A DNA stretch of 64,000 bases from an uncultured Candidatus Saccharibacteria bacterium (GCA_964618625.1 CAZUBI010000001.1:164781-228780); one strand, 5' to 3'; positions 20,671 to 54,657 are shown, counted from the stretch's first letter. Translations and numbers: made by a program. Notes: generated by a model not told the origin, from the sequence alone.

Positions 20671-20721
20671 GTGTGATGAAATATTATATTTATCTATAGT
20701 GTTTTACTATATTTTATCAAT

Positions 20722-21492
20722 TTATTTCTCTAAAATCCGAAATTTCCCTGATTTTACTAATTTGATACTGTTATAATTTTTTGGATTCTCAAATTCAAAC
20801 TGCCAAATTGAATAGAGATCCTCACCGTGTGCTTTATCAAAAAATAAAGTAATTACTTTTTTTCTTATCTGCTCTTGCCATTGCCTAAAAGGATAGTAAA
20901 GCTGACGAATAATTACATTTGCTGCACTAAAGTTCTTTGCTTCAATTAATACAACCTGCTTCTTACCTTCATACCCAGCATCAACTTCAGTTTGTACACT
21001 TGAAACTTTAATTTTTTGTTTGCCAACTCTAAAGTCAAAGCTAGGTGTATATTTTCTACCTCGTATTGTAAGAACAAGCGAAGGATCATTCATAAAAGTA
21101 CGAATCAAACTTGAGGCATAAGCATAATCAAGATGCTGCATTTCTGAATTACCGATTCTTGCAGTATCTAATTGAAAATCTAATTTTGAGGAATAAATTG
21201 ACACTTCTTTTTTAATTTCTGGAATATCAACATAACCTTCTCCTTTAATAATATTATAATATCCATTTTTTACAGGAAGTAAAAATAAATTATGCTTTTG
21301 AAAAATGTCTGGTCTATCCTTTCGTCTGTCCTGCTTGCACAAAATACGAACCTCTTTTTTACCTGTTTCTTTAAACCTTTGACAAGCCTGCTTTATCTGT
21401 TTTGCAGAAAGTAAAAACGGTGATTTATCAAAATCATGATCTAAGATTTTATAATCATCAAATATCTTTTTCCAAGATTTACTATTTGCCAT
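20722..21492 (-). CDS. type II restriction endonuclease (putative)
   Basis: 256 aa; immediately downstream of the methyltransferase (15 bp gap); D..EGKKQVVLIEAK PD-(D/E)xK-like block. Confidence 0.55.
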   Translation of the reverse strand: MANSKSWKKIFDDYKILDHDFDKSPFLLSAKQIKQACQRFKETGKKEVRILCKQDRRKDRPDIFQKHNLFLLPVKNGYYNIIKGEGYVDIPEIKKEVSIYSSKLDFQLDTARIGNSEMQHLDYAYASSLIRTFMNDPSLVLTIRGRKYTPSFDFRVGKQKIKVSSVQTEVDAGYEGKKQVVLIEAKNFSAANVIIRQLYYPFRQWQEQIRKKVITLFFDKAHGEDLYSIWQFEFENPKNYNSIKLVKSGKFRILEK

Positions 21493-21507
21493 AATATCAA
21501 AAACAAT

Positions 21508-22464
21508 TTATTTTTTAAGACTATGATTTAATTTTTTAAAACGCTTTATTGATAAATCTAAATATTTTTTTTCTGTATCAATACCTACAAATTTTCTATT
21601 GTTAAAACATGCAGCTAAACCTGTCGTCGAACTACCTGTAAAAGGATCTAAAATAATATTGCCTTTATTTGTGCTTGCTAATACTATTCTTTTAAGTAAT
21701 TCAAGCGGCTTTTGGGTTGGATGTTTTCCAAATACTTTTTCTTCCTTTTTAGGAGTTGTTATAGCCCATACAGAACGCATTTGTTTCCCTTTCTTATGCA
21801 TTGGCTCTATAAACTCATCATTCTGACAACGAATCTTATAATTATTATCCCAATCTCGCATTAGTTTATAATTAAAAGTGTGTTTTACTTTTTTATATTT
21901 TCGCGCCCATAAAATTGTTTCATGGCTAGCTGTGAAATAACGACAACTTAAATTGGGTGAAGCATTTGGCTTAAACCATGAAATATCATTTAGTATATGA
22001 AAGCCGGCAACTTGTAAAGCAAACCCACATTGATAAATAGAATGATAAGTTCCGCTAATCCAAATTGTTCCGTTTGGTTTTAATACACGCCTGCATGCTT
22101 TAATCCACTCCAAATAAAATTCAAAATCCTTTTTTAATCCATTGCTTTTATCCCATTTACCTTTATTTACACTTACACGTTTCCCAGCATGAACCGTAAA
22201 TCCTCCGTTAGAAAGCAAATAAGGAGGGTCGGCAAATATCATATCAATTGAATTTTCTGGCAATTGTTCTAGTATTTTTAGACAATCAGATCTATATAAC
22301 ACAAAATCGCCTTTGGAAAAATAAGGCTTTTGCTTGATAGAAAAAAGTATTTTCTTATTTATACTCATAAAGTTGTTTTCTATCTCCGGAACTAATATTT
22401 TTATCTTTTCGCATCTATAATTAAGATCTAATTGTATTAAATTTTGTTTGTTACGGTGGGGCAT
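21508..22464 (-). CDS. DNA methyltransferase, beta-class amino-MTase (N6-adenine or N4-cytosine)
   Basis: 318 aa; motif IV DPPY (IFADPPYLL) precedes motif I FTGSSTTG near the C-terminus, which is the beta-class order. Confidence 0.85.
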   Translation of the reverse strand: MPHRNKQNLIQLDLNYRCEKIKILVPEIENNFMSINKKILFSIKQKPYFSKGDFVLYRSDCLKILEQLPENSIDMIFADPPYLLSNGGFTVHAGKRVSVNKGKWDKSNGLKKDFEFYLEWIKACRRVLKPNGTIWISGTYHSIYQCGFALQVAGFHILNDISWFKPNASPNLSCRYFTASHETILWARKYKKVKHTFNYKLMRDWDNNYKIRCQNDEFIEPMHKKGKQMRSVWAITTPKKEEKVFGKHPTQKPLELLKRIVLASTNKGNIILDPFTGSSTTGLAACFNNRKFVGIDTEKKYLDLSIKRFKKLNHSLKK

Positions 22465-30277: not shown

Positions 30278-30313
30278 TTTACTATCATTTTGCTGTATTC
30301 ACAAACAACAAAA

Positions 30314-30343
30314 AACCACTCTGTTTTTAATTTTGGAGTGGTT
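30314..30343 (-). terminator. intrinsic terminator downstream of the methyltransferase
   Basis: AACCACTC..GAGTGGTT 8-bp stem followed on the minus strand by TTTTTGTTGTTTG. Confidence 0.5.
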
Positions 30344-30414
30344 AATTAACTCTTTTAATTACTCCATTTCCATCTGAGCAAAAGGACAACGCAAATAAGG
30401 AAAATTATATTTTT

Positions 30415-30488
30415 TCAGAATTTTCCTTGTTTTATATTGTCTAAAAGATCTGCTAAAAGAGTGTTTTTGGTAATCTTTACCATTATTC
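30415..30488. repeat. ~73-bp direct repeat, copy 1 (flanks methyltransferase)
   Basis: CAGAATTTTCCTTGTTTTATATTGTCTAAAAGATCTGCTAAAAGAGTGTTTTTGGTAATCTTTACCATTATT; second copy at 31222-31296 with 3-4 mismatches. Confidence 0.8.
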
Positions 30489-30494
30489 CAGTCC

Positions 30495-31184
30495 TTATTT
30501 TCTAAAAATGTAAATCTGAATTTTCTCGATTACGGTTTTTTCCTCTAGGCCTTTGCCTTCCAATACTTTATGAATTCTGTTTACTAATATTTGTCTTTCT
30601 TCGTCATCTTTTGGAATTAATATATCTGACCACCAATCCAACATAGTATTATCAAGTTCTGTAATATCATTAAAAACCATATCTATTTGGCCAGTTTTAT
30701 ATTGGAGTAACTTATGACCATTTTGTTGCATATAGTTTTTTATGGTTGAAGCGGATTTTTTAATTCGTTCACCATGATTCTCATTCGGATCAAAAACCCT
30801 AAACAAATCATTTGTCACTGATCTTTCTGTTGGATCTATGAATATAAGCAAACCATTATCTTTAAGAACGCGCATAGCTTCGTTTAGCACATCTGTTTGT
30901 TTTTCATGGTCAATTTCGTGAAAACTAGATGAAAAAACGACATCAAAGAACTTATCATTAAATTTCAAATCGCTGGCATCCATTAATAAAAATTCAGTAT
31001 TTGGTGCAGAATTTTCTTTTATGTTCATATCAATAAACATTTGCAATAAATCAATGCTCTTAAGCGATTTTGCGTATTTTTGTATTATTTGCGTATAGCT
31101 ACCGTCACCACAACCAATTTCCAAAACATCTTTGTCTTTAGCTTGTTTGATTACATCCTCGACAATGTGCATATCTCTTTTCAT
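30495..31184 (-). CDS. class I SAM-dependent methyltransferase
   Basis: 229 aa; VLEIGCGDGSYT motif I; acidic motif II. Confidence 0.8.
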   Translation of the reverse strand: MKRDMHIVEDVIKQAKDKDVLEIGCGDGSYTQIIQKYAKSLKSIDLLQMFIDMNIKENSAPNTEFLLMDASDLKFNDKFFDVVFSSSFHEIDHEKQTDVLNEAMRVLKDNGLLIFIDPTERSVTNDLFRVFDPNENHGERIKKSASTIKNYMQQNGHKLLQYKTGQIDMVFNDITELDNTMLDWWSDILIPKDDEERQILVNRIHKVLEGKGLEEKTVIEKIQIYIFRK

Positions 31185-31221
31185 TTTATTATTTATTTAT
31201 TTTTTATATTTTACTAATTTT

Positions 31222-31296
31222 TCCAGAATTTTCCTTGTTTTAGTATTGTTTAAAAAATCTGCTAAAAGAGTGTTTTTGGTAATCTTTACCATTATT
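31222..31296. repeat. ~73-bp direct repeat, copy 2
   Basis: CCAGAATTTTCCTTGTTTTAGTATTGTTTAAAAAATCTGCTAAAAGAGTGTTTTTGGTAATCTTTACCATTATT. Confidence 0.8.
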
Positions 31297-31485
31297 TTAA
31301 ATGTCGGAGATAAGTTGAAACCTTAAAATCTTTCTATATTTTTAGTTTAACAAAAATATGAATGAAAGTAAATTTTTTAACCCATTGTTATACTATTGAC
31401 TCAAAATCTATTAGTTGCTAAACTAGAAATAGACCCATACCTGTGGTCGGGGTGTGGATAACTTGATTAATAGTCTTTAAAAACT

Positions 31486-31758
31486 ATGTCTAATCAAAAA
31501 GAAAAAACATTTATTAACTTTAAAAAAGCGCAGGGCTCAATTGCAAAAATTATTAAAATGGTTGAAAGCAATGAATACTGCATTAATATTATGCAGCAAA
31601 ATTTAGCAGTCATTGGGCTTTTAAAGTCCGCCCATCAAATGTTAATGGAAAATCATCTAAATACCTGTTTTAAAACAGCAATGGGAACAAAGAATGAGAA
31701 AAGAAAACAAGAAATGATCGAAGAAATTTTAAAGGTTACAAGATTGTTTAATAAATAA
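31486..31758 (+). CDS. csoR: CsoR/RcnR-family metal-sensing transcriptional repressor
   Basis: 90 aa; conserved Cys (YCINIM) and His/Cys (HLNTC) ligand positions of the DUF156 family; first gene of the copper island. Confidence 0.75.
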   Translation: MSNQKEKTFINFKKAQGSIAKIIKMVESNEYCINIMQQNLAVIGLLKSAHQMLMENHLNTCFKTAMGTKNEKRKQEMIEEILKVTRLFNK

Positions 31759-31779
31759 GCTTAAGAAATATAATTTACG

Positions 31780-33492
31780 ATGCTTAAAAAAACTAAAATT
31801 CAAATTGAAAATATCCGCTCGGAAAACGATAAAGCGTTGATTGAGACTGAAGTTGATATTTTAGAAGGAGTAAAAGATATTAATATTAACGAAAAAAACG
31901 GCGAAACTATTATAGAATTTGATGACAATATTATTTCTTTAGATGAAATACGAAGAGTAATTAAAAAACTGGGTTTTCAAATAGAAAGCCAAGAAAAAAT
32001 CTTGTCAGTGCAAAAGGAGCATATTTATTTTGTTAAAGGAATGCACTGCGCTTCTTGTGAGGTTTTGATAGAAAAAAAATTATTAACTTTTAAACAGATA
32101 AAATCAGTTGAGGCATCGGCTGATAAGGGCAGAGTTTTTATTGTCTATGAAGGAGAGAGGCCAAGCACTGACAGATTAAACAAAAATTTTAGAAAAGAAA
32201 ATTATCTTTTCTTTGACCACCCAGCAAAAATCACAGAGAAAAAAGAAGGGAACAACTTTTTCATAATCGCTGGCACGGCGTTATTTATTATCATCGGATT
32301 TTTTATTATTAAAAACAGCGGCTTTACCGGTTTGATAAATGTTAATTCAACTTCATCTTTGCCTACGTTCTTTTTCTTGGGGCTATTGGCCGGAGTTTCT
32401 AGCTGCGCGGCTTTGGTTGGTGGCTTGGTTCTTTCAATGTCAAAACAATGGCTTCAAATGTATTCTGAAAAAAACTCAACTTTAGAAAAACTTCAGCCCC
32501 ATTTAATGTTTAATATCGGAAGAATTGTTTCTTATGCTCTTTTAGGAGGCGTTATTGGCGCCATCGGCAGTAAATTTCAAATCTCTTTAACTTTTACTTC
32601 TGTTTTAATTATCGCTGTTTCTATAATGATGTTCTTTTTAGCTTTACAAATGTTAGGGGTAAAAGCTTTCCGAAAATTTCAGTTTACAATGCCTAAATTT
32701 ATAACCAGACGCATTGTTGATGAAACTAAATTCCAAGGAAAATACATGCCATTTCTAATGGGAGCGCTGACTTTTTTTCTGCCTTGCGGTTTTACCATTA
32801 CTGCCCAAGGACTGGCTTTAATTTCCGGAAACGCGGTTCAGGGCGCTTTAATTATGCTTTTCTTTGCCCTGGGAACATTGCCGGCACTTCTGGCAATTGG
32901 ATTATCGGCGGTTAAATTTTTTGAGAAGCCTCATTTGTCCTATAAATTTCTAAAAGTTGCCGGCGTTCTGGTTTTGTTTTTCGCTTTATACAATATTAAT
33001 TCCCAATTAAATGTTTTGGGATTTTCCAGTTTTAGCGATATAAAACCGAACTTTATTGGTCGGCAAAATGAAGAGGGATTGCCGCCGATTGTTAACGGCA
33101 AACAGGTTATAAAGATGGATGCCTTGAGTTTTGGCTATAAACCAAATTATTTTAAGGTCAAAGTCGGAGTTCCTGTCAGATGGGAAATTAGTGATAAAGG
33201 AACAAGCGGATGTACTAACGCCATTATTTCCAAAGGCCTATTTAAAGAAGAAATTCCTCTTACTCCGGGCCAGACAAGTATTACAGAATTTACGCCGGCA
33301 AAGCCGGGAAAGTATAAATTTAGTTGTTGGATGGGGATGGTTTCTGGCATTATAGAGGTAGTTGACGGTAAAATTGCAGCAAAAAACCCTGTCGCTAATG
33401 TTCAAGCCGCCAACGGGGACGATGATATTATCCCCTCCGGCGCCAAAGGATGCGGCTGCGGCGGCGAAAGCGGCAGCTGCGGCGCAAGATAA
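31780..33492 (+). CDS. HMA-domain / CcdA-TauE-like membrane domain / cupredoxin-like fusion protein
   Basis: 570 aa; GMHCASC HMA site, TM helices with GLLAGVSSC and FFLPCG cysteines, C-terminal cupredoxin-like domain (FSCWMGM) and a GCGCGGESGSCGA tail. Confidence 0.65.
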   Translation: MLKKTKIQIENIRSENDKALIETEVDILEGVKDININEKNGETIIEFDDNIISLDEIRRVIKKLGFQIESQEKILSVQKEHIYFVKGMHCASCEVLIEKKLLTFKQIKSVEASADKGRVFIVYEGERPSTDRLNKNFRKENYLFFDHPAKITEKKEGNNFFIIAGTALFIIIGFFIIKNSGFTGLINVNSTSSLPTFFFLGLLAGVSSCAALVGGLVLSMSKQWLQMYSEKNSTLEKLQPHLMFNIGRIVSYALLGGVIGAIGSKFQISLTFTSVLIIAVSIMMFFLALQMLGVKAFRKFQFTMPKFITRRIVDETKFQGKYMPFLMGALTFFLPCGFTITAQGLALISGNAVQGALIMLFFALGTLPALLAIGLSAVKFFEKPHLSYKFLKVAGVLVLFFALYNINSQLNVLGFSSFSDIKPNFIGRQNEEGLPPIVNGKQVIKMDALSFGYKPNYFKVKVGVPVRWEISDKGTSGCTNAIISKGLFKEEIPLTPGQTSITEFTPAKPGKYKFSCWMGMVSGIIEVVDGKIAAKNPVANVQAANGDDDIIPSGAKGCGCGGESGSCGAR

Positions 33493-33521
33493 AAATTTAT
33501 TAAAATAATTAAATTCAAATT

Positions 33522-34496
33522 ATGAAAAAAGCAAAATTTAAAATTCATGGCATGTATTGCAACTCCTGCGCCATTCTTATTCAAGAAAGATTAAAAAATC
33601 TGCCGGGTGTGATTCAAGTAAAAATAAATCATGAGTCGGAAAAAGGCGTGATAGCTTACGATGAAAATGCGATTGAAGAAACGGAAATTCAGAGTGAGAT
33701 TGAAAGCGTCGGTGAATACAGCGTTGAAAAAATTGAAGACACAGAAAAAGAAAAAAATATTAAAGAAGATTATTTTCAGACCTTGGAAAAGAAGAAAGAT
33801 TATTCTCGTCCCAATCTTTCTATACCAATCTCCATAATTATCGCAGGCTTGATTATCGGAGGGGCAGTTATTATCAGTAGTGGAAATGTAAATATCGGTA
33901 AAGAAATTGCCACCACTGGACAAATAGCCCAAAATTTGCCCGTTAACGATACTCAACCGCCCGAAGTGCCAGCAATTGCTCAATTTGACATTACAAAAAA
34001 CGACCATATTCGCGGCGATTTCAATGCGCCGATTACTTTGGTTGAATTTTCTGATTTTGAATGTCCGTTCTGCGCCAGACATAATCCAACTCTGATTAAA
34101 ATTTTAGACGATTATAAGGGAAAGGTCAGGTTAGTTTATAAACATTTTCCTTTGGGATTCCATTCAAACGCTCAAAAAGCGGCCGAGGCCTCGGAGTGCG
34201 CCAGCGAGCAAGGCAAGTTTTGGGAATATCACGATAAATTATTTGAAAATTTAGCTACAAGCGGTTATAGTCTCGTGAATTTTAAACAATGGGCGAAGGA
34301 TTTGGGTCTTAATTCAAAGAAGTTTGACGATTGTCTTGATTCGGGAAAATTCGCTCAAAAAGTTCAGGCTGATTTTCAGGAAGGATCACAAAAAGGAGTA
34401 AACGGAACGCCAGCCACTTTTGTTAACGGCCAGTTTGTAAGCGGCGCCTTACCTTATGATTCGTTCAAGCAGATAATTGATTCATTGTTGCGATAA
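33522..34496 (+). CDS. HMA-domain protein fused to a membrane-anchored thioredoxin/DsbA-like domain
   Basis: 324 aa; GMYCNSC HMA site, one TM helix, FSDFECPFCAR CxxC thioredoxin fold. Confidence 0.75.
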   Translation: MKKAKFKIHGMYCNSCAILIQERLKNLPGVIQVKINHESEKGVIAYDENAIEETEIQSEIESVGEYSVEKIEDTEKEKNIKEDYFQTLEKKKDYSRPNLSIPISIIIAGLIIGGAVIISSGNVNIGKEIATTGQIAQNLPVNDTQPPEVPAIAQFDITKNDHIRGDFNAPITLVEFSDFECPFCARHNPTLIKILDDYKGKVRLVYKHFPLGFHSNAQKAAEASECASEQGKFWEYHDKLFENLATSGYSLVNFKQWAKDLGLNSKKFDDCLDSGKFAQKVQADFQEGSQKGVNGTPATFVNGQFVSGALPYDSFKQIIDSLLR

Positions 34497-34500
34497 AATT

Positions 34501-35712
34501 ATGGACATAGATAAAATTAGACCGGATTTTCCCTTGTTGCAAACGAAGATTAATGGGAAATCTATAATTTATTTTGATAACGCCTGCCAGTCATTGCGTC
34601 CTTGGCGGGTTATTAATGCCATAAATGATTATTATCAAAAATATTCGGCTTGCGGTGGCCGCAGTGTTCATAAATTAGGAGAATTAGTGACTCAAAAATG
34701 TGATGAATCAAGAAGGGTGGTCGCTGATTTTATCGGCGCCAGAAGAAAGGAAGAAATAATCTTTACCCGTAATACCACTGAAGGAATAAATTTGGTTGCC
34801 CAGTCACTAGGATTAAAAAGGGGAGATATTGTTTTAACTACCGACAAAGAACATAATTCCAATTTGATCCCCTGGCAGATTTTGGCAAAAAATATCGGGA
34901 TTATCCACAAGATAGTTCCTTCAAAAAAAGACAACACTTTTGATTTGAAAAAATTCACAGAGATGATGAGCGAGCGAATAAAATTGGTTTCAATGGTTTG
35001 GACATCCAACTTAGATGGAGTGACAATTCCGGCGCGAGAAATAATTAATATTGCCCACAAAAAAGGAGCAATCGTATTGCTGGATGCCGCTCAGACTGCC
35101 TCACACCAGAAGATTGATGTGGCAATGCTGGATGTGGATTTTTTAGCTTTTTCCGGTCATAAAATGCTCGGACCATCCGGCATGGGAGTATTATACGGGA
35201 AATATCACCTTTTAGAGGAATTAGATCCTTTTTTGGTCGGCGGAGAAACGGTTGAATCTTCAACTTACGAAAATCATAAATTGCTTCCGCCGCCGGAAAA
35301 ATTTGAAGCTGGATTACAGGATTTTGCCGGCATCATTGGATTGGGCGAAGCGGTTAAATATCTGCAACAAATCGGCTTTAAAGACATAATCCGGCAAGAA
35401 TTAGAATTAAACAAATTTATTACAGAAGAAATAAGCAAAATTCCTTCAGTGAGAATTATCGGACCGCTTGATCCGGCGTTGCGGGGTGGAATTATTTCTT
35501 TCTGGGTTGAAGGAATGGATTCTCATCAAGTAGCTTTGGTTATGGATGAAATGAGCGGGATAATGATTCGCTCCGGTCAGCACTGCGTCCATTCATGGTT
35601 TAATGCCCATCAGATCAAAAGCTCTGTAAGAGCTTCCTTGTATTTCTATAATATGATCGCGGAAGCGAAAATCTTTGTAGAGAGCTTAAATAAAATTATT
35701 AAATTAATATAA
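34501..35712 (+). CDS. cysteine desulfurase (class V aminotransferase, SufS/NifS-like)
   Basis: ORF-track frame starts 34477; PLP-lysine region SGHKMLGPSGMGVLYG; conserved C-terminal Cys (SGQHCVHS). Confidence 0.85.
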   Translation: MDIDKIRPDFPLLQTKINGKSIIYFDNACQSLRPWRVINAINDYYQKYSACGGRSVHKLGELVTQKCDESRRVVADFIGARRKEEIIFTRNTTEGINLVAQSLGLKRGDIVLTTDKEHNSNLIPWQILAKNIGIIHKIVPSKKDNTFDLKKFTEMMSERIKLVSMVWTSNLDGVTIPAREIINIAHKKGAIVLLDAAQTASHQKIDVAMLDVDFLAFSGHKMLGPSGMGVLYGKYHLLEELDPFLVGGETVESSTYENHKLLPPPEKFEAGLQDFAGIIGLGEAVKYLQQIGFKDIIRQELELNKFITEEISKIPSVRIIGPLDPALRGGIISFWVEGMDSHQVALVMDEMSGIMIRSGQHCVHSWFNAHQIKSSVRASLYFYNMIAEAKIFVESLNKIIKLI

Positions 35713-35717
35713 ATCCA

Positions 35718-36644
35718 ATGCTTTGCATAATTGCCTTAATAGTTTTTGCATTTTTAGGAATTTTTAGCGCCAGCCATCGTGCGCTGGCAAAAGAAGCGCT
35801 TGATTGTGTTCTGCGGCGCATCACTTTAAGACCTTGTAATACTGGATTTAATGAAAAAATAAAGGGTAGGATGATTGGCAAACTACTTAATCGATCTGTG
35901 TTGGCCGCCCGCGTTTTCAATAAACACTTTGAATTAATTTCCTGGATTTTTATTATTTTGTCTTTAACAAGCGCTTTTTATGTAGTCAAAGGAGGCTACA
36001 ATTATTATCTATATGGTAGTTGCAATGGTTTAAATCAGAGTGGATTCTGCGTATTTGATCCGATGGGAGGAAGTAATAAAGTATCGCCAGTTAATAGCAA
36101 TACTTGCCCTATTCACCAGGATACCAAAGAAGCCGTAACCTTGACCGGTTTAGATCTTGCCCAATTCCCGCAAAAAAAGTTTGATTCTAAAAATCAAGTT
36201 GTTTTTATCGGATGTTATAACTGCGATTATAGTCGTAAGGTTTACCCCCTTATTCAAAAACTTATCAATAAAAATAAAGCTGATTTTACTTTTATTCATA
36301 TCCCGGCTAAGGAGGAAACGAATTATATTTCCGACTATGTATATTGTCTCTACAAAGAAGATCAAGAAAAATTCTGGAGCTTTAACGATAATCTGTTTGC
36401 TTCCGATAAAAAAGATATAGAAAACAATGATTACATTAAACAGTTGGCCGGAAATGTCGGCTTTGATATGACAAAATTACAGCAATGTGTTTCAAGCAGT
36501 GAAACCAAAAACGTTGTCAGTCAACAGTTTGAACAAATTCAGGCTACGGGAGTCTATGGCACGCCCACCATTTTTATAAATGGCGAAACGCTTGTTGGAC
36601 CCAAGCCTTACAGGGTTTATGAAAAAATGCTTAAAAATAATTAA
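35718..36644 (+). CDS. membrane-anchored DsbA-like thioredoxin-fold protein
   Basis: 308 aa; N-terminal TM region with Cys pairs; CYNC CxxC in a DsbA-like C-terminal domain. Confidence 0.6.
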   Translation: MLCIIALIVFAFLGIFSASHRALAKEALDCVLRRITLRPCNTGFNEKIKGRMIGKLLNRSVLAARVFNKHFELISWIFIILSLTSAFYVVKGGYNYYLYGSCNGLNQSGFCVFDPMGGSNKVSPVNSNTCPIHQDTKEAVTLTGLDLAQFPQKKFDSKNQVVFIGCYNCDYSRKVYPLIQKLINKNKADFTFIHIPAKEETNYISDYVYCLYKEDQEKFWSFNDNLFASDKKDIENNDYIKQLAGNVGFDMTKLQQCVSSSETKNVVSQQFEQIQATGVYGTPTIFINGETLVGPKPYRVYEKMLKNN

Positions 36645-36663
36645 TTATTATAAAAATAAAAAT

Positions 36664-37491
36664 ATGTCAAAAAATAAATATCATACAAACCAGCAAGGGG
36701 AAAAATATTGGCCGATTTTTGTAGTCGTAGTTGTTGTTTTGATTGTCGGAGGGTTTTTTCTTTTGAGAAAGTCTGAAGAAAAAAATATTAGCCAAAGCCA
36801 ATGTCAAGTCAAAGAGATGATTTTTTATTATCGAGATGGTTGTTCTTGGTGTCAAAAAGTTAAAAATGAGGGAACAATTAAGAATATTAAAGAATTAGGA
36901 GTAAGTGTTAAAGAAATTAATACAGATATTGGTCCGATCAAGCATCAATTTCAAGGAGTACCAACTTTTGTCATTGATGAAAAGGTTTACTCCGGTTATA
37001 AAACCTTTGAAGAGTTAAAGGAGCTTCTTGTCTGCTCAACGGACGGCAAGCAAGGTCTTGAAACTCAAAATCAAGCATCGCTTCCGGTTCAGGCCGAAAA
37101 AGCCTTTTTTGGCGAAAAGGGCGAAAATGTATTCTTGGAAAATGGAGAAATTAAATTGGACGCTTCGCAATTTAATGATAATCAAGCGCGTTTCTACAAC
37201 ATAAAAATGTCCGGCGGAAAAATAATTTATTTTTTTGCAGTGAAGGATAAAAACGGAATTTACAGAGCCGCCGCTAATGCCTGCGCGATCTGTTTTAAAA
37301 CATATAAAGGATTTCGCCAGGAAGGCAACGAGATCGTCTGTAATAATTGCGGGAATCGTTATCCGATAGAAAAAATCGCCACTGAAAAAGGCGGCTGCAA
37401 TCCCGGCCCGATTAATCCGAATTTATCAATTCAAAGCGGTAAAATTATTATAGAGCAGGCCGACATTGAACAAGTCGCCGATCTTTTTTGA
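36664..37491 (+). CDS. membrane-anchored thioredoxin/glutaredoxin-like protein with C-terminal Cys-rich domain
   Basis: Start at MSKNK (ATG 36664) chosen to avoid overlap with the upstream gene; CSWC active site; C-terminal CAIC..CNNCGN Cx2C pairs. Confidence 0.6.
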   Translation: MSKNKYHTNQQGEKYWPIFVVVVVVLIVGGFFLLRKSEEKNISQSQCQVKEMIFYYRDGCSWCQKVKNEGTIKNIKELGVSVKEINTDIGPIKHQFQGVPTFVIDEKVYSGYKTFEELKELLVCSTDGKQGLETQNQASLPVQAEKAFFGEKGENVFLENGEIKLDASQFNDNQARFYNIKMSGGKIIYFFAVKDKNGIYRAAANACAICFKTYKGFRQEGNEIVCNNCGNRYPIEKIATEKGGCNPGPINPNLSIQSGKIIIEQADIEQVADLF

Positions 37492-37524
37492 AAACATTAA
37501 AATTAAAAATTAACCGCAAATATT

Positions 37525-39756
37525 ATGGAAAAAACAATCTTAAAAATCTCTGGAATGCATTGTGCTTCTTGCTCGGCAATAATTGAAAACGCCCTTAAAA
37601 AAGAAAGGGGCGTTATTTCAGTAAATGTTAATTTTGCCTCAGAAAAAGCGAATTTAGAGTTTGATCCTAAAAAGATTAAAATTGAGGAAATTCAAAAAAT
37701 TATTCAAGGATTAGGGTATAAGATCGAGAAAGATATTAATAAAGAAGCTATCAACTATCAAAAAAGCCAAAAAATAAAACAATTAAAAAAACGGTTTATT
37801 ATTTCTTTTGTTTTTGGTTTACCTCTCATTTATATTGTTATGGGCGGAATGCTCAGTTTGCCAATACCGCAATTTTTCAAAGAATGGAATATTTTAATTC
37901 AATTTATTTTAGCAACCATTGTAATTTTAGTTTGCTTTAATCTTTGGATTTCTGGCTTTAAGAATTTAATACGACTGAGGCCTAATATGGATTCTTTAAT
38001 TTTTATTGGCACGGCTACTGCTTATTTTTATAGTCTTGCTGTCACCACCTTTTTTTGGCTAGGCGTTCAAAAACTGCCTCTTCATTTATATTATGAAAGC
38101 GCTGTCTTTATCCTTATTTTTATTTCACTTGGCAAATATTTAGAAGCAGTTACTAAAGGAAAGACCAGTGAAGCCATTAAAAAATTAATTGGGTTGCAGC
38201 CAAAGGAAGCGACAGTTATCAAAGATAGACAGGAAATCAAAATCCCAATCTCTGAAGTGAAAGTTGGTAGTGTTATTTTGGTGAGACCGGGTGAAAAGAT
38301 TCCAGTTGATGGAGTTGTAATTGATGGGTATTCGGGCGTTGATGAGAAAGCAATTACTGGCGAGAGTATTCCAGTTGAGAAAAGCAAGGGAGACGAAGTC
38401 ATTGGCGCAACAATTAACAAGACGGGAGTTTTAAAATTTAAAACAACAAAGATTGGAAAAGATACAATGCTTGCTCAAATTATTAAAACAGTAGAAGAAG
38501 CCATGGAGTCTAAAGCGCCAATTCAACTTCTGGCTGACAGAGTTTCTTTTTATTTTGTTCCAGGAGTAATCGGGATAGCCATTTTAGCTTTTATTGTCTG
38601 GATTGTTTTAGGCCAACCCTTTGTTTTTGCCTTGACAATTTTCGTTGCGGTTCTTATTATTGCTTGCCCCTGCGCCTTAGGGTTGGCGACACCGACAGCA
38701 GTGATGATGGGGACAGGTTTAGCGGCGCAAAACGGTATTTTAATCAAAACCAGTAAGGCTTTAGAAACAGCCCAGAAAGTGAATATAGTTGTTTTTGATA
38801 AAACAGGCACCTTAACTAAAGGTGAGCCAGAAATAACAAATATTGTAAACATCTCGAATTCCAAATCTCAAGAACAAATTTTGCAATTAGCTGCTTCAAT
38901 AGAAAAAAATTCTGAACATCCTCTTGCCCAAGCCGTTACTCAAAAAGCTCAAAAAGAAAATATAAGCTTGTTAGATGTCCAAAATTTTGAGGCAATACCT
39001 GGTAAAGGTGTTATGGCTCTATCTAAAGGTGCTAAGATTTTATTAGGAACAAGAAAATTAATGAGCGAAAATAATATCAATGTAGATTTTATTGAAGAAA
39101 AATTAGTAAAATTAGAAAACCAAGGTAAAACAGCAATGATTTTGGCTCATAATGGAAATGTTGTCGGAATAATTGCTGTAGCTGATACTTTGAAAAAGTA
39201 TTCTAAAGAAGCAGTAACCATGTTACACAAATTAGGTAAAAAAGTTGCCATAATCACTGGGGATAATAAAAGAGTGGGACAAGCTATTGCTCAACAAGTT
39301 GGTATAGATAGAATTTTAGCTGAAGTTTTGCCGCAGGAAAAATCAGAGGAAATTAAAAAATTACAAAAAGAAGGAAATATAGTGGCAATGGTAGGCGACG
39401 GAATAAACGACGCTCCAGCTTTAGCTCAGGCAGATTTAGGCATTGCTTTGGGCTCTGGCACTGATATTGCCATAGAAACAGGAGAAATAGTTTTAATAAA
39501 AGATGATCTACGGGATGTAGTTAAAGCTATTGATTTGAGTAAATATACTTTTAAAAAAATCAAACAAAATCTTTTCTGGGCTTTCTTTTACAATAGTATT
39601 GGTATTCCTATTGCCGCGGGCATTTTATATCCGCTAACTGGTTGGCTTCTCAATCCAGCAATCGCGGCTTTAGCCATGGCTTTTTCCTCAGTAAGCGTTA
39701 TCTCTAATGCTCTTTTAATGAAACGATATAAGTTACAAACTGTTAAAAAATTTTAG
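37525..39756 (+). CDS. copA: copper-translocating P1B-type ATPase
   Basis: 743 aa; N-terminal HMA GMHCASC, CPC in TM6 ([12 protein letters not shown]), [17 protein letters not shown]. Confidence 0.9.
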
Positions 39757-39770
39757 GGAGTTATTTCGGT

Positions 39771-39849
39771 TGGTCGGGGTGACAGGATTCGAACCTGCGA
39801 AGTCTCTCGCACCCCATGCGAGCGCCCTAAACCACTGGGCCACACCCCG
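39771..39849 (-). tRNA. trnP: tRNA-Pro (anticodon GGG)
   Basis: Cloverleaf read by eye: acceptor CGGGGTG/CACCCCG, D-stem GCCC/GGGC, anticodon stem CTCGC/GCGAG with loop ATGGGGT, T-arm GCAGG-TTCGAAT-CCTGT, encoded CCA. Confidence 0.85.
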
Positions 39850-39859: not shown

Positions 39860-40054
39860 TTATTTTTCCGTAATCTCAATAGCCCCAACAGGACAATTTT
39901 CTGCTGCTTGTTTTATGCAATCTTTGTGTTTTTCTAAATCTACTTCTTCTTTAATTTTTGATTTTCCATCTTTTAATTCAAAAACCTCGGGGCAAAGACT
40001 GATACATACTCCGCAACCGAGGCATTTTTGTTTATCTATTTTTACCTTTTTCAT
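39860..40054 (-). CDS. 4Fe-4S ferredoxin
   Basis: ORF-track frame 39860-40093; likely start MKKVKID; CLGCGVCISLCP and C..C..CP clusters. Confidence 0.75.
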   Translation of the reverse strand: MKKVKIDKQKCLGCGVCISLCPEVFELKDGKSKIKEEVDLEKHKDCIKQAAENCPVGAIEITEK

Positions 40055-40112
40055 AAGGGTGTAAAGGGATTGCCACGGCCTTCGGCCTCGCAATGACAGG
40101 TAGATTGTCAGT

Positions 40113-40304
40113 TTAGGTGATTGTTTTAGAGAGGCGTTTGCGGCATTTAGTGCAAGCCTTTACTCTTTTACCATCTGGCATTCTAAACCATTGCAAATTA
40201 GGCTTCTGGCGATGTTGAGCAACTGGATTATAAGCTGAATGCACTTTTTTGTATTTAGTGGCATTTTGATAGCTTTTTCCGCAAATTGAACAAACTCGTG
40301 ACAT
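40113..40304 (-). CDS. rpmB: 50S ribosomal protein L28
   Basis: 63 aa; MSRVCSICGK..PNLQ..KACTKC L28 pattern. Confidence 0.8.
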   Translation of the reverse strand: MSRVCSICGKSYQNATKYKKVHSAYNPVAQHRQKPNLQWFRMPDGKRVKACTKCRKRLSKTIT

Positions 40305-44881: not shown

Positions 44882-47800
44882 TTATATTTTAAAGGTGGAA
44901 CGTTCTTTAAATTCTTCCTGTTTTCCTTTATGCCATTGTTGTACAGGACGCAAATATCCGACAACTCTGGAATAAACCTCACAAGGCTGTTCTATTGTAC
45001 ATTTTGGACAAATAAAATGTTCCCCTGCTATATATCCATGAATAGGGCAGACAGAAAAAGTAGGCGTAAGAGTAAAATATGGCAAACGGAATTTTTCAAA
45101 AACAATTTTAATTAAAGATTTTACTGATTCAGAATCAGACACTGCTTCTCCTAGGAAAGAATGAAATACCGTATTATGAATAAATACTAAAGTATTTTTA
45201 CCAGCTAAATAATTATGATTTTTTTGAGTGGTCAAATCATAAAATTGATTATCTTTCACATCAACTTTTGAAATTTTCTTTACTCTGATTACGGGTAAAA
45301 ATCTTTTCTTTCTATTAGAAAACTTATTGTTAATTCTTTCTTTATTAACAGTGTTTTTTAATTGATCTTTTATTTTAATCATCTCGTATTGTGGTATTCG
45401 AATCCGCCAAATATCCACCTCATTTTTTCTTTTATTTTTCTTCCTTGTCTTACCGACCATAATTCCAGCGATTGAGCAAATCTCTAAAATATCATCAGCT
45501 AACCCCTCGGAAACAGTATAATATTCGAAAAACCCATCTCTTTTATCAATATGACCATCGCTATCCATTAACCCTGATAAAAGTGAATAAAAATTCTCTT
45601 TTCTAATGTTCGCTTTTACTATTTCAGGAATTCTTATTATATAAGTTTTTTCTCCAAAAGAAAATCCATATTTAAAGAAAAACTGCCAAACAGCTTTTTT
45701 AGACGTTGAAACACATCTCAATAATTTACTCCTTTTATCATTTTGTATTACATTCACATGACAATTAAAATATTTATTAAGAATATTCTTTATTTTGCTT
45801 AGTGCTACTCGATGTTCGGAAAAAAAACGCACTACAAATTTTTCAATCTGATTTCCTCCTCGATTATCAAAAAACTGAGAGATGGAACCATCGCCAATAA
45901 AAAATCCAATTAACCACATTAAATTATTATCTAGCCTAGATGATTTTTCTAAATAAAGATTGAAAGAGTTTTGTAAAATATAATCACTTTTCTTCAGCTC
46001 ATCTGCTCTTTTTTCTATTACTCTATATTTTGACATTTTTGAATACTTCAATCGACATTGTGCATGATGCTTTAAATGAACAGCAAAACCTTTAATATTG
46101 CTTACCTTTTCTTGACAAATAGGACAACAAGAATCAGGTTTTATCTTTTCCAAAACAAAAAATGGATGCCAATCAGAAGTAGTAATATCCATTCCCTTCT
46201 CTCCCTTTATCCTAATTTTATTCTTTTTTTTAACATTAATTTTAAAAACATCAACAATTGCGTCCCATTCGCTAACGCCTTTCTTTAAATTGTAGCTTAA
46301 AGCTTTAATGGGTTTTAATTTTTCAAAATTCTCTACTATTTCTTCTATTTTAATCAAACCTTTATTAGTCAAAACTTTATTCCCTTTCTCAATACATCCA
46401 CCTGTATATTTTGTTTGTAAAGAATCCTGTAATTTTAAAGCTTCAAATAAATCATCTGTGTAATTTACAGGTAGTTGGGTGGAATTAGTATAATAAGGCT
46501 CTTTTCCCCCTGCAGTAATAATATCAGGATATTTTTTCTTATCTTTTAGCGCCAAACGATAAGAAGTTCCTTCGGCAGGAGTAGCCTCTAAATTATATAG
46601 ATTTCCGGTTTCTTCCTGATACTCTACCAACCTATCACGCATAAAATCTAATACTTCTAAAGCAAATTTAACTCCTTTTTTATTACCTAAATTTATTCCC
46701 AAAAAATTAAGAAGCGCTTCATTCATGCCAATCAATCCAATGGTGGAAAAATGATTGCCCCAATAACAACTTCTCATCTTCTTCACTCCGTTTAAATAAT
46801 ATTTTGCATAAGGATAAAGCCCTTTATCTGTCCAATCTTCCAAAACCTTTCTTTTTATTTCCAAGCTTATTTTAGCTAAATTCATTATATGCGCTAATTT
46901 TTGGAAAAATTCTTTTTTTGTTTTGGATAAATAAGCCAAACGAGGCATATTAATCGTTGCCACGCCAATACTCCCTGTGAGCGGAGCTGCTCCAAACAAT
47001 CCTCCTCCACGTTTATAAAGTTCTCTATTATCCAACCTAAGTCGACAGCACATTGAACGCGAATCTTCTGGACTCATATCAGAATTGATAAAATTTGAAA
47101 AATATGGAATTCCGTACTTTGCCGTCATTTTCCAAATTCCATCATAAACTGGATTATTCCAGTCAAAATCTTTAGTAATGTTATAAGTAGGAATAGGGAA
47201 GGTAAAAACTCTTCCACTCGCATCACCATCTACATAAACCTCGCAAAACGCCTGATTAAGCATATCCATTTCTTCTTGAAACTCTTTGTAAGTTTCTTTT
47301 TGATGCTCACCACCAATTATCACAGGCAACTCTTTAAAATGACTTGGAACTTTTAAATCCAAAGTAAGATTTTCAAAAGGGGTTTGAAAGCCTACTCTTG
47401 TAGGGATATTACAATTAAAAAGAAATTCCTGCAAAGATTGTTTTACCTCATTATAGGTTAAATTATCATAACGAATAAAAGGCGCTAATAAAGTATCAAA
47501 ATTAGAAAAAGCCTGGGCCCCGGCTCCTTCTCCTTGTAATGTATAGAAAAAATTAACTACTTGACCTAAAGCAGAACGAAAATGTTTTGCAGGTTTTGAT
47601 TGAATTTTACCAAAAACTCCACCAAATCCTTTTAAAAGAAGATCATATAAATCCCAGCCACAACAATAAGTGGCTAAAATATCTAAATTATGAATATGAA
47701 AATCTCCGCTTTCAGTTGCTTCCCTGACTTCTGGCGGATAAATTTTTCTCAACCAGTATTTTTTTGCCACATAAGCAGCAACATAATGATTTAATCCCTG

Positions 47801-48217
47801 CAAAGAAAAGGCCATATTGCTATTTTCTTTTACCTCCCAATCTTTCTCCTTTAAATATTCATCTACTAAGCTTATTGCTTCTTCAGAAATGATACGGCTT
47901 TCCCTTAATTTTTTTCGCTGTTCACGATATAAGATATAGGCTTTTGATGTCTCCACTAAATTCTCTAAAATTAGAACCTCTTCAACAATATCCTGAATCT
48001 GCTCTACGGTAGGAATTTCATCTTTTTTAAATCTTCTGTTTAAAATTTTTATCACGCGAGCGCATAATTGCCGCGATAAAACTTTGCCACCTTCATCAGT
48101 GGCTGTTAAAGCTTTATAAATAACTTCTTCAATCTTCTTTTTATCAAAAAGAACAATATCCCCTGTTCTTTTTTTTACTTGCTTTATATGATTATGAAAT
48201 TTTCTTTTTGGGGACAT
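44882..48217 (-). CDS. nrdD: anaerobic ribonucleoside-triphosphate reductase (class III) containing an intein
   Basis: 1111 aa; ATP-cone N-terminus, glycyl-radical motif RVVGYLRP, C-terminal Zn ribbon CPIHGY..CPKC; ~408-aa insertion carrying intein and LAGLIDADG motifs. Confidence 0.85.
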   Translation of the reverse strand: MSPKRKFHNHIKQVKKRTGDIVLFDKKKIEEVIYKALTATDEGGKVLSRQLCARVIKILNRRFKKDEIPTVEQIQDIVEEVLILENLVETSKAYILYREQRKKLRESRIISEEAISLVDEYLKEKDWEVKENSNMAFSLQGLNHYVAAYVAKKYWLRKIYPPEVREATESGDFHIHNLDILATYCCGWDLYDLLLKGFGGVFGKIQSKPAKHFRSALGQVVNFFYTLQGEGAGAQAFSNFDTLLAPFIRYDNLTYNEVKQSLQEFLFNCNIPTRVGFQTPFENLTLDLKVPSHFKELPVIIGGEHQKETYKEFQEEMDMLNQAFCEVYVDGDASGRVFTFPIPTYNITKDFDWNNPVYDGIWKMTAKYGIPYFSNFINSDMSPEDSRSMCCRLRLDNRELYKRGGGLFGAAPLTGSIGVATINMPRLAYLSKTKKEFFQKLAHIMNLAKISLEIKRKVLEDWTDKGLYPYAKYYLNGVKKMRSCYWGNHFSTIGLIGMNEALLNFLGINLGNKKGVKFALEVLDFMRDRLVEYQEETGNLYNLEATPAEGTSYRLALKDKKKYPDIITAGGKEPYYTNSTQLPVNYTDDLFEALKLQDSLQTKYTGGCIEKGNKVLTNKGLIKIEEIVENFEKLKPIKALSYNLKKGVSEWDAIVDVFKINVKKKNKIRIKGEKGMDITTSDWHPFFVLEKIKPDSCCPICQEKVSNIKGFAVHLKHHAQCRLKYSKMSKYRVIEKRADELKKSDYILQNSFNLYLEKSSRLDNNLMWLIGFFIGDGSISQFFDNRGGNQIEKFVVRFFSEHRVALSKIKNILNKYFNCHVNVIQNDKRSKLLRCVSTSKKAVWQFFFKYGFSFGEKTYIIRIPEIVKANIRKENFYSLLSGLMDSDGHIDKRDGFFEYYTVSEGLADDILEICSIAGIMVGKTRKKNKRKNEVDIWRIRIPQYEMIKIKDQLKNTVNKERINNKFSNRKKRFLPVIRVKKISKVDVKDNQFYDLTTQKNHNYLAGKNTLVFIHNTVFHSFLGEAVSDSESVKSLIKIVFEKFRLPYFTLTPTFSVCPIHGYIAGEHFICPKCTIEQPCEVYSRVVGYLRPVQQWHKGKQEEFKERSTFKI
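45173..46396 (-). mobile_element. intein with LAGLIDADG homing endonuclease inside nrdD
   Basis: Begins at Cys 608 (TGG|CIEKGNKV), ends VFIHN|T; LIGFFIGDGSIS and LSGLMDSDGHI LAGLIDADG blocks; coordinates computed from residue positions. Confidence 0.7.
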
Positions 48218-54557: not shown

Positions 54558-54657
54558 AAGTTTGTCATACTTAAATATGTTAAAATCTAAACAATCACTT
54601 TATCTTATTAAACTTTCGCCAAAAAGACGATTCTGCCTTTTTGACCAATAACTATAT

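Follow-up and report, generated by a model that had tools for sequence, protein, structure and literature searches.

A putative CsoR-controlled copper and thiol-redox operon beside tRNA-Pro in a Patescibacteria genome, probably acquired by recombination with a relative's DNA

Introduction

Scs (suppressor of copper sensitivity) and DsbD/CcdA-DsbA-type systems are envelope thiol-redox systems tied to copper tolerance. Cargo units flanked by MITEs are also known, e.g., integron mobilization units and MITE-bracketed integrons. CsoR-controlled copper genes have been described in the copZA/copA operons, namely, cso of M. tuberculosis, copZA of B. subtilis, and csoR/copZA of S. lividans. The known type of CsoR operator is a G-tract TAC/GTA pseudopalindrome (PMC3902906).

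Here, we analyzed a stretch of 64,000 nucleotides from an uncultured Candidatus Saccharibacteria bacterium (GCA_964618625.1, CAZUBI010000001.1:164781-228780), hereafter the window, which carries a block of copper and thiol-redox genes. Operons of this type are already known and are common in Parcubacteria. From its predicted proteins, the block would be an accessory copper-homeostasis operon combining CsoR-controlled copper efflux with thiol redox. We estimate a probability of about 0.68 that this assignment holds jointly with the proposed route of entry, i.e., recombination with a relative's DNA and not an integrase, an 11-mer shared with the neighboring tRNA being the CsoR operator.

Results

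The seven genes of the block were assigned by Pfam, in agreement with the content given in the initial annotation, and the adjacent tRNA-Pro was confirmed with Rfam. Coordinates are those of the window.

31486..31758, plus strand: csoR, Cu(I)-sensing repressor (PF02583, E 4e-17, 62.9 bits)
31780..33492, plus strand: membrane fusion of two HMA domains, a DsbD_2/CcdA-like transmembrane domain, a cupredoxin domain, and a Cys-rich tail (Pfam)
33522..34496, plus strand: HMA domain, membrane anchor, and DsbA-like thioredoxin domain (Pfam; CPFC from the translation)
34501..35712, plus strand: class-V aminotransferase, SufS-like cysteine desulfurase, 403 aa (PF00266, E 1.5e-115; gene call)
35718..36644, plus strand: membrane-anchored DsbA-like thioredoxin-fold protein with CYNC (Pfam Thioredoxin_4/DSBA)
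36664..37491, plus strand: membrane-anchored thioredoxin-like protein (CSWC) with a Cys-rich FtrD-like domain, 275 aa (PF10080, E 1e-25; gene call)
37525..39756, plus strand: CopA, P1B-type Cu(I)-exporting ATPase (Pfam HMA, E1-E2_ATPase, Hydrolase)
39771..39849, minus strand: tRNA-Pro(GGG) with encoded CCA (Rfam tRNA, 57 bits)
39860..40054, minus strand: small 4Fe-4S ferredoxin

The block is not the only plus-strand segment of the window, as had been proposed, since 53541-54557 (LytR_cpsA_psr) and 54658-55221 (peptidyl-tRNA hydrolase) are also on that strand.

Alignment placed C32, H57, and C61 of the window CsoR on C36, H61, and C65 of M. tuberculosis CsoR (2hh7), and we take these three residues to be its Cu(I) ligands; the protein combines the PF02583 fold with the x-Cys-His-Cys fingerprint of the Cu(I)-sensing CsoR subgroup. 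The CopA translation contains GMHCASC, ACPCALG (CPC), and DKTGTLT (DKTGT), corresponding to the N-terminal HMA domain with GMxCxxC, the transmembrane CPC, and the DKTGT phosphorylation site of P1B-1 Cu(I)-ATPases. The HMA/DsbD_2/cupredoxin fusion has 2659 homologs at E <= 1e-50, and those named among the best 120 come from Patescibacteria/Parcubacteria or unclassified bacterial MAGs.

Judging from these protein families, csoR through copA would form one polycistronic transcript repressed by apo-CsoR, which would bind a single G-tract pseudopalindrome (31437-31457) directly downstream of the -10 element. Cu(I) bound to C32/H57/C61 would release CsoR, and CopA would then export Cu(I) from the cell. 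The fusion protein and the three membrane-anchored CxxC thioredoxin-fold proteins may handle copper outside the cytoplasm and also repair copper-damaged thiols there, while the cysteine desulfurase may provide sulfur for Fe-S cluster repair.

The sequence TGGTCGGGGTG occurs exactly twice in the window, at 31444-31454 and at 39771-39781 in the tRNA, with 0 matches expected from dinucleotide shuffles. The initial annotation had noted this exact repeat, with the first copy misplaced by one nucleotide (31445-31455), and had taken it for an attL/attR pair, mentioning a CsoR operator as the alternative. The first copy also falls within an imperfect palindrome, CCATACC-N9-GGTGTGG, which we found where it had been described, upstream of csoR (31435-31457, 28 nt before the ATG).

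31396..31424, plus strand: csoR promoter, TTGACT, 17-nt spacer, and TG-TAAACT (consensus scan)
31437..31457, plus strand: predicted CsoR operator ATACCTGTGGTCGGGGTGTGG, a G-tract pseudopalindrome containing the 11-mer at 31444-31454 (conservation)

Upstream regions of csoR were compared among 63 loci (62 related loci and the window). The operator 21-mer, present as a single copy within the window, was found with at most five substitutions in 42 of the 63, window included, at -41 to -80 from the ATG and mostly at -41 to -61; the exact 11-mer was found in 15. A TTGACA-17-TAnAAT promoter precedes the 21-mer in most loci carrying it, and the motif is kept whatever the neighboring tRNA: tRNA-Ala, tRNA-Pro(TGG), or none seen on the contig. 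Because the 21-nt motif recurs in 42 loci, in most of them right after a conserved promoter and also where the neighbor is tRNA-Ala or no tRNA is seen, we read the 11-mer as the core of the CsoR operator and not as an att scar. Its match to the tRNA 3' end (CACCCCG + A + CCA) is then a coincidence of two independently constrained sequences. With the 11-mer serving only as operator, the att claim falls and the island claim stands, as a variable, compositionally distinct insertion beside tRNA-Pro.

Comparison of tRNA-Pro loci, as the initial annotation had suggested, provided an uninterrupted version of the site in two relatives about 90% identical to the window, L085 (JGI) and L086 (ENA), both short metagenome contigs of ~3 kb. 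In each, tRNA-Pro is followed directly by a methyltransferase gene, without copper genes. The L085 aspS-L28-fdx-tRNAPro segment aligns to window 41543-39773 and then jumps to 31226-30466 (L085 1693-2452 by blastn), and the tRNA-spacer-methyltransferase junction of L086 is the same. These empty sites place the left boundary at 31226|31227, i.e., 218 bp left of the 11-mer and not at the 11-mer itself, as had been claimed. Junction alignments revealed no copy of the tRNA end and no tRNA-like sequence at this boundary.

30362..30487, minus strand: copy A, resident small DUF1858-like gene downstream of the methyltransferase, frameshifted or shortened
30495..31184, minus strand: SAM-dependent methyltransferase, resident left-flank gene (Pfam Methyltransf_11/25)
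31217..31226, no strand assigned: left recombination junction, 10-nt microhomology CTGRAAAAAT in minus-strand reading (junction alignments, blastn)
31227..31296, minus strand: copy B, truncated DUF1858-like 5' fragment, first 25 codons, ATG at 31292-31290

The methyltransferase orthologs beside tRNA-Pro are 92% (L085) and 89% (L086) identical to the resident gene. CTGRAAAAAT is common to codons 23-26 of the DUF1858-like gene and to the spacer just 3' of the relatives' resident tRNA-Pro. The first 70 nt of copy A (30419-30487) recur where the block begins on its left, as a 67-nt direct repeat with 88% identity. Translations and tblastn relate copy A to a small ORF of L086, which has a weak DUF1858 match (E 4e-6, below Pfam's cutoff). 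Copy B would be what is left of a gene that once adjoined the block, carried along with it. The left junction is also present in L087 and in L173, another assembly, which lends no independent support because it is 100% identical to the window.

At the other end, the window tRNA-Pro is 70% identical to that of L085, and its flanks are 93-100% identical; the difference extends over the whole gene, 5' half included. We found no remnant of the L085-type tRNA in the window, and L086 keeps both halves of it. Amino acid identity to L085 is 64% for the ferredoxin, 94% for L28, and 95% for AspRS. Informative sites in aspS-L28 unite the window with L085 and leave L086 outside (52 versus 5 and 7), and this signal is lost within the ferredoxin gene; sites in the methyltransferase gene are mosaic. 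Sliding identity, alignment, and three-way informative sites put the right breakpoint in or just past the ferredoxin gene, at ~39885-40113. Since identity drops from ~95% in the flanking genes to 70% in the tRNA, the latter would have come with the block, probably together with the ferredoxin gene, and the window tRNA-Pro is probably a replacement copy. The block thus delimited spans about 31227 to ~39885-40110 and contains the DUF1858-like stub, the csoR promoter and operator, the seven genes, and tRNA-Pro(GGG), probably with the ferredoxin gene.

The higher GC content noted by eye in the initial annotation was borne out. The block is the GC-richest 8.5-kb stretch of the window (0.358 versus 0.319), and the shift lies mainly in third codon positions (GC3 0.326 versus 0.249 +/- 0.043 elsewhere, Mann-Whitney p = 0.0005). 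Most block genes have a GC3 of 0.33-0.38, and the methyltransferase gene has 0.27.

As initially reported, no integrase was found in the block or its flanks; all seven block genes are otherwise assigned by Pfam. Those of the nearest flanking genes that could be assigned by Pfam encode no recombinase, the left 12 kb including six ORFs without any Pfam match, and the integrase pseudogene fragments suggested for the island edges were not found there. Ten proteins that we screened from the interval separating copA from tRNA-Pro, in a set of ten related loci, likewise included no integrase. Of the hallmarks of a tRNA island, the block has a tRNA neighbor with an empty site in relatives and a deviating composition; it has no att core repeat at its distal boundary and no tyrosine/serine recombinase or remnant.

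Discussion

Comparative sequence data suggest that the operon is an acquired, strain-variable block beside tRNA-Pro in a tiny Patescibacteria genome. In the ancestral state, tRNA-Pro would have been followed directly by the methyltransferase gene, as it still is in L085 and L086. The donor would have been a related Parcubacterium whose cluster had tRNA-Pro on one side and a DUF1858-like gene on the other. On the right, crossover would have been homologous, within or beside the ferredoxin gene, the left join would have used the 10-nt microhomology CTGRAAAAAT, and the incoming tRNA-Pro would have taken the place of the resident one. The donor arrangement, with csoR divergent from the DUF1858-like gene, was seen in none of the fetched loci.

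An integrase-borne island at the tRNA-Pro 3' end, with the 11-mer pair as attL/attR cores and the integrase lost or supplied in trans, was the reading first put forward, and we regard it as very improbable. It would explain why the block adjoins the tRNA 3' end, is missing from near relatives, and shows an exact direct repeat not expected by chance. In many lineages, the cluster also has a tRNA gene (Pro, Ala, or Gly) as its neighbor, and in L155 a version bounded by inverted repeats abuts the tRNA-Pro CCA end exactly. However, the position of the true left boundary 218 bp beyond the 11-mer, the lack of a tRNA fragment at that junction, and the conservation of the operator of which the 11-mer is part, also at loci with tRNA-Ala or no tRNA seen, speak against the 11-mer as attL/attR. 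L155 has the same 11-mer pair, yet its operator lies ~490 bp inside the cassette boundary. The whole tRNA differs, and not just the part 3' of a crossover; furthermore, the block and its flanks contain no integrase or integrase fragment, and no non-coding gap in the block exceeds ~190 nt. The integrase/att model is largely refuted.

Two other histories would do without an integrase. The cluster-tRNA-Pro-L28 order could be an old Parcubacteria synteny that the window retained and L085/L086 lost, which we consider unlikely. In ~14 of the ~33 related loci whose contigs extend far enough, copA is followed by tRNA-Pro(GGG) and then L28. Loci separated by a small L28 distance are separated by a small CopA distance as well, and the distances are partly congruent (Spearman 0.36 among loci with the linkage). 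Given this linkage in at least 14 diverged lineages and the partial congruence, some vertical history at the site is likely. A loss in L085 and L086, however, would have to explain why the two have exactly the same precise junction when L085 groups with the window and not with L086, and it leaves the 70% identical tRNA, the GC3 shift, and, at the block edge, the microhomology and truncated DUF1858-like gene unexplained. Parsimony on three sequences is a weak guide here because gene flow among relatives could spread either allele. The event could also have run the other way, an L086-like spacer, methyltransferase gene, and 5' part of DUF1858 inserting into the DUF1858-like gene of a window ancestor that already had tRNA-Pro-cluster-DUF1858. 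This would yield the same microhomology junction and 70-nt direct repeat: the two copies bracket the methyltransferase gene, whose informative sites are mosaic, and the left junction looks identical whether the cluster or the methyltransferase segment moved. This version seems quite improbable to us, as the compositional outlier is the block and not the methyltransferase gene, and the 93-100% identity of aspS-L28 to L085, against 70% for the adjacent tRNA, suggests that it was the tRNA side that was imported. We thus favor entry of the copper operon by recombination with a relative's DNA, a reading in line with the many differing genomic contexts of the cluster in other loci.

The operon shares with the CsoR copZA/copA operons the PF02583 Cys-His-Cys repressor, a G-tract pseudopalindromic operator beside the promoter (PMC3902906), and a P1B-type CopA. 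The half-sites ATACC/GGTRT of the operator are 9 nt apart, compared to 7 in the Streptomyces type-2 consensus ATATACCCCTNAGGGGTATAT, and the right half is usually GGTGT. The operon differs in having no free-standing CopZ, its HMA domains being fused to membrane redox proteins, and in having five extra genes between csoR and copA (the DsbD_2-cupredoxin fusion, two DsbA-like proteins, the cysteine desulfurase, and the Trx-FtrD-like protein). Pfam domains, from which function is inferred only, suggest a likeness to Scs/DsbD-type systems in the DsbD/CcdA-like conduit and extracytoplasmic CxxC thioredoxin-fold proteins. In the window, however, the conduit protein also carries HMA and cupredoxin domains, and the Patescibacterium that hosts it is not known to have a Gram-negative-type periplasm.

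A likeness to MITE-flanked cargo units applies to related loci only. A GC-rich element with a defined terminus (CAATTACTGAAC) stands in inverted orientation on either side of the cassette in L155, L168, L151, and, in part, L169; its inverted arms measure ~270-300 bp, and the full unit in L155 is ~430 bp. No transposase was identified for the element in these loci, and blastn with the L168 and L155 elements found no copy in the window. The bracketed unit of L155 lies between tRNA-Pro and a terminator-like hairpin, with GTCG (4 bp) at both ends; this may be a target duplication or part of the element, and GTCG also precedes the element terminus in four other loci. No empty site for the bracketed unit turned up among the related loci. 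The L151 arms, 1270 nt long and 100% identical, may be an assembly artefact.

With tRNA-associated islands and integrative elements, the window block has in common its place at a tRNA 3' end, its absence in close relatives, its distinct composition, and metal resistance as adaptive cargo. In contrast to such islands, it has neither an integrase nor att repeats at its true boundaries; the tRNA gene itself appears to have been exchanged, and the junctions are best described by 10-nt microhomology on one side and homologous recombination on the other.

A variable block beside tRNA-Pro

The seven-gene copper/thiol-redox operon running from csoR to copA (31486-39756, plus strand) lies next to a tRNA gene. 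Pfam bore out each of the seven gene identities proposed by the initial annotation, and ARAGORN and Rfam did the same for the tRNA:

39771-39849, minus strand, tRNA-Pro(GGG) with encoded CCA

A homolog search with the left-flank methyltransferase (30495-31184, minus strand, called start four codons after the ORF start) recovered L085 (JGI 3300022539) and L086 (ENA ERZ27247989), short contigs that derive from other samples. L085 has the gene order aspS-L28-ferredoxin-tRNA-Pro-methyltransferase-YjbQ, and blastn matched its positions 1-1693 to window 41543-39773 and 1693-2452 to window 31226-30466. In L086, tRNA-Pro is followed by the L085 spacer and then the methyltransferase gene. These junctions indicate that approximately 8.5 kb of the window is missing from relatives whose flanks are 88-95% identical. 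The idea of a variable block inserted beside tRNA-Pro was thus right, since both relatives pass directly from tRNA-Pro to the methyltransferase. A third contig, L087 (98.9% identical to the window), has the window-type junction.

All matches to the window AspRS were Patescibacteria (Parcubacteria/Paceibacterota-type) MAGs; one reached 92% identity and the others did not exceed 65%. A comparison of gene order near aspS across 80 GTDB species representatives was uninformative at this divergence (AspRS identity ≤65%), and L083, the one close genome (92%), breaks off within aspS. Window-identical contigs are present in Logan assemblies SRR8482191-96 and in NCBI GCA_004196315.1. The identical Logan contig L003 ends at window 31267, inside a 70-nt repeat at the left edge of the block, an end most simply explained by the assembly breaking in the repeat, not by strain variation.

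As first judged by eye, the block is GC-richer than its surroundings (0.358 vs 0.319), being the richest 8.5 kb of a window with a GC content of ~31%, and the shift is located in third codon positions (0.326 vs 0.249 ± 0.043, p = 0.0005). It is not the sole plus-strand segment, as had been stated, since 53541-55221 also holds two plus-strand genes, one of the LytR family and pth. The reported absence of an integrase held and extends to transposases and fragments of either, the longest non-coding gap in the block being ~190 nt. Nor were any of these found among the flanking genes, which include a P-type cation ATPase, six ORFs that Pfam did not match, and a DNA methylase/AIPR defence cluster to the left, and ComEC, an MBL-fold protein, NrdD/NrdG, FtsZ, and FtsA to the right. 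Within these flanks, a probable defence islet of low GC (0.25-0.30) occupies window 19042-22464 on the minus strand, its products being an AIPR abortive-infection protein, a DUF6996/DUF6997 protein, and an N6/N4 DNA methylase. Precomputed Pfam matches on the identical Logan contig show a LAGLIDADG-containing intein in the anaerobic ribonucleotide reductase NrdD (44882-48217).

The shared 11-mer is the core of a predicted CsoR operator

The 11-mer TGGTCGGGGTG, initially read as an attL/attR pair, occurs exactly twice, as claimed, at 31444-31454 (a first coordinate corrected by one) and 39771-39781, and sequence shuffles yield no such repeat. Genes and tRNAs were mapped in a set of 80 fetched metagenome loci encoding relatives of the HMA-DsbD_2-cupredoxin fusion protein. 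The csoR-fusion-(HMA-Trx)-(Trx-FtrD)-copA cluster recurs widely among them, with amino-acid identities of 60-84%. In most loci, a TTGACA-17-TAnAAT promoter precedes csoR, with ACCTATACCTATGGTCGGGGTGTGGATAA after the promoter. The 21-mer ATACCTATGGTCGGGGTGTGG was found with up to five substitutions in 42 of 63 upstream regions, counting the window, and with up to three in 33; positions G9-G10-T11 and G15-G16-T17 are invariant. The exact 11-mer is present in 15 of the 63, including loci where the cluster adjoins tRNA-Ala(CGC) (L120, L162, L136, and L139) or tRNA-Pro(TGG) (L158), and one with no tRNA seen after copA (L127). In the window, the motif is single copy and lies 13 nt past the -10 of a TTGACT-17-TAAACT promoter.

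Such conservation upstream of csoR, whatever the adjoining tRNA, identifies the 11-mer as the core of a predicted CsoR operator, as the initial annotation had offered as its alternative. Its match on the tRNA side consists of the acceptor strand CACCCCG, A73, and CCA, a 3' end whose sequence is constrained for its own reasons. The att reading is wrong: the true left boundary is 218 bp away and carries no tRNA-like sequence. The related locus L155 also has the 11-mer pair, with the operator well inside the cassette boundary. A second operator-like palindrome (TATACCTATACCTGGGGTATAGGTATA) lies upstream of copA at L147 13191-13230, suggesting that regulation acts at two promoters in some cassettes; only one operator is present in the window.

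Left and right joins of the probable imported segment

The sequence shared with the empty sites picks up again at window 31226, left of the 11-mer. Inserted DNA begins with 70 nt (31227-31296) that repeat 30419-30487 at 88% identity, and each copy corresponds to the opening 25 codons of a small gene (MVKITKNTLLAD...) whose L086 ortholog gives a weak DUF1858 match; an assignment of this repeat to the 5' end of yjbQ was rejected. The copy at the block edge is truncated at the junction. The 10-mer CTGRAAAAAT is common to the DUF1858-like gene (...AAGGAAAATTCTGAAAAAATATAA...) and to the L085 spacer after the resident tRNA (...CCCGACTGAAAAAATTAATAA...), and in the window the gene sequence runs as far as this 10-mer and gives way to the L085-type spacer beyond it, making this a microhomology junction. 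No remnant of the L085-type tRNA was detected anywhere in the window with up to three mismatches allowed. Among the fetched loci, the order expected of a donor, with the DUF1858-like gene divergent from csoR, was not found, homologs of this gene being located only downstream of copA (L101 and L131). As for yjbQ, it survives in the window only as an 18-codon remnant (30311-30364), with the DUF1858-like pseudogene on one side and the P-type cation ATPase on the other; L085 has an intact 134-aa YjbQ in this place.

On the right, the window and L085 are 93-100% identical over aspS and L28, but identity breaks down at the spacer between L28 and the ferredoxin gene; within that gene it is intermediate, and in the tRNA it is only ~70%. 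Some of the tRNA differences are compensatory, affecting the acceptor, D, and T stems. In aspS-L28, 52 informative sites unite the window and L085, leaving L086 apart (5 and 7 support the other groupings); this signal is gone in the ferredoxin gene, and the window ferredoxin protein is nearer to that of L086 (75%) than to that of L085 (64%). Because L086 keeps both halves of the L085-type tRNA, this tRNA represents the older state for the group. Taken together, the identity drop, the lost site signal, and the older L085-type tRNA place the tRNA inside the predicted imported segment, which probably also includes the ferredoxin gene, with a putative right crossover between ~39885 and 40113. The block limits given initially need moving to ~31227 and ~39885-40110.

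Several features of this region were also recorded. At L086 2012-2236, the L085-type tRNA-Pro is seemingly split after the second anticodon G by an insert of ~150 nt. This insert contains another tRNA-Pro(GGG), complete and distinct from the split one (2064-2137), along with repeats of the motifs CCCCGCAC / GTGCGGGG. On the same contig, a VTC-domain gene lies between the ferredoxin gene and the tRNA. The L28-ferredoxin spacer of the window has a single-copy GC-rich hairpin (GTCATTGCGAGGCCGAAGGCCGTGGCAATC, 40068-40097; folding z-score only -1.4); L086 has a different hairpin there and L085 has none.

Gain, loss, or the mirror event

Among loci on sufficiently long contigs, approximately 14 of ~33 have tRNA-Pro(GGG) and then L28 within 5 kb downstream of copA. 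The tRNAs and spacers at these loci are very unlike one another, and no conserved copA-tRNA junction was found across lineages. Loci near in L28 are also near in CopA, so part of the linkage is old synteny, which fits a donor with the cluster already beside tRNA-Pro. The same old synteny keeps alive the possibility that the cluster was ancestral at the window site and lost in L085 and L086. However, loss would have to account for an identical empty junction in two non-sister relatives, and the exchanged tRNA, the third-position GC shift, and the truncated neighbour gene all speak against it for this lineage. Insertion of a methyltransferase segment into a cluster-bearing genome would produce the same junction, but this mirror event is less likely given the composition and the contrast between tRNA and flank. 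We thus favour gain of the block by recombination.

No donor of the cluster was identified; the best homologs are on short contigs (fusion protein, 84%; cysteine desulfurase, 91%). The proteins screened between copA and tRNA-Pro in related loci included no recombinase and were HNH-repeat, HhH-GPD, ThiI, adenylate kinase-like, or glutaredoxin-like proteins, or had no Pfam match. PF18780 homing-endonuclease-associated-repeat proteins adjoin tRNA-Pro(GGG) downstream of the copper cluster in L103 (7041-7898, minus strand) and L129 (5122-6039, minus strand). Elsewhere the cluster lies between NifS-NifU-MnmA and ZIP (L171), or between phage-like genes and PFOR with an IS200-type Y1 transposase 2.7 kb off (L172).

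GC-rich inverted repeats in related cassettes

In L168, L155, L151, and partly L169, the cassette lies between inverted copies of a GC-rich element.

Inverted arms of the GC-rich element in related loci
L168, 1-274 and 8879-9151, either side of the cluster
L155, 186-480 and 5480-5774, 295 nt, 98% identity
L151, 1-1270 and 5598-6867, perfect over 1270 nt, which may be an assembly artefact
L169, 844-902 and 5741-5799, 59-nt pair bracketing a paralogous HTH-CysDes-DsbA-ATPase cluster

The arms measure ~270-300 bp, with a full unit of ~430 bp in L155, and the element terminates in CAATTACTGAACGAAGCTCGAACC, usually preceded by GTCG. In L155, the bracketed unit is flanked exactly by the CCA end of tRNA-Pro and by a hairpin resembling the terminator of that tRNA, and GTCG is present on either side. 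The element is absent from the window. Rfam gave no match except tRNAs in the junction regions, the window block, and the GC-rich repeats. Among nine other related loci, long inverted repeats were limited to the 59-nt pair of L169, with none comparable in L162, L120, L127, L095, L116, L125, L147, or L148.

It is conceivable, although we consider it unlikely, that the cassette family is a transposase-less unit of Parcubacteria with MITE-like GC-rich repeats of ~300-430 bp, mobilised in trans and inserting at GTCG, as suggested by the L155 arrangement (for example, at the tRNA-Pro 3' end, TGGTCGGGGTG), and that the window copy is a repeat-less secondary derivative passed on by recombination. In a weaker variant, the identity between operator and tRNA-Pro end would itself favour microhomology capture beside tRNA-Pro.

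Inferred function and significance

Gaps between the genes of the block are 5-33 nt, or the genes overlap. Aligned to M. tuberculosis CsoR (2hh7), the repressor has C32, H57, and C61 at the ligand positions, and CopA carries GMHCASC, CPC, and DKTGT. Judging from these families, a single CsoR-repressed promoter would drive csoR to copA, copper would release CsoR, and CopA would export Cu(I). The SufS-like desulfurase may back Fe-S cluster repair. The CysDes-DsbA pair is limited to a cassette subgroup comprising L168, which is 80-82% identical to the whole block in nucleotide sequence, and L170, together with the paralogous cluster of L169.

CPR/Patescibacteria genomes are tiny and hold few classical mobile elements. 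The block offers a worked case of gene gain in this group, with a ComEC-type competence gene nearby, in which an adaptive operon of 8.6-8.9 kb can enter via homologous and microhomology recombination, swapping the neighbouring tRNA gene. It also calls for caution in predicting islands: a tRNA together with a direct repeat and a shifted GC content can look like an att scar where the repeat is in fact the binding site of a regulator. The Parcubacteria CsoR operator consensus, built on 42 sequences, could serve for copper-regulon prediction in uncultured lineages, and the cassettes bracketed by inverted repeats in relatives may indicate an undescribed non-autonomous element.

CsoR operators are G-tract pseudopalindromes with TAC/GTA dyads (PMC3902906). 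The predicted operator is likewise a G-tract pseudopalindrome, but its half-sites ATACC/GGTRT are 9 nt apart, not 7. The DsbD_2/CcdA-like HMA/cupredoxin fusion and three anchored CxxC proteins resemble thiol-redox systems of the envelope that are linked to copper tolerance. The block is a new member of two known kinds, the CsoR/CopA operon and the accessory islet acquired through recombination.
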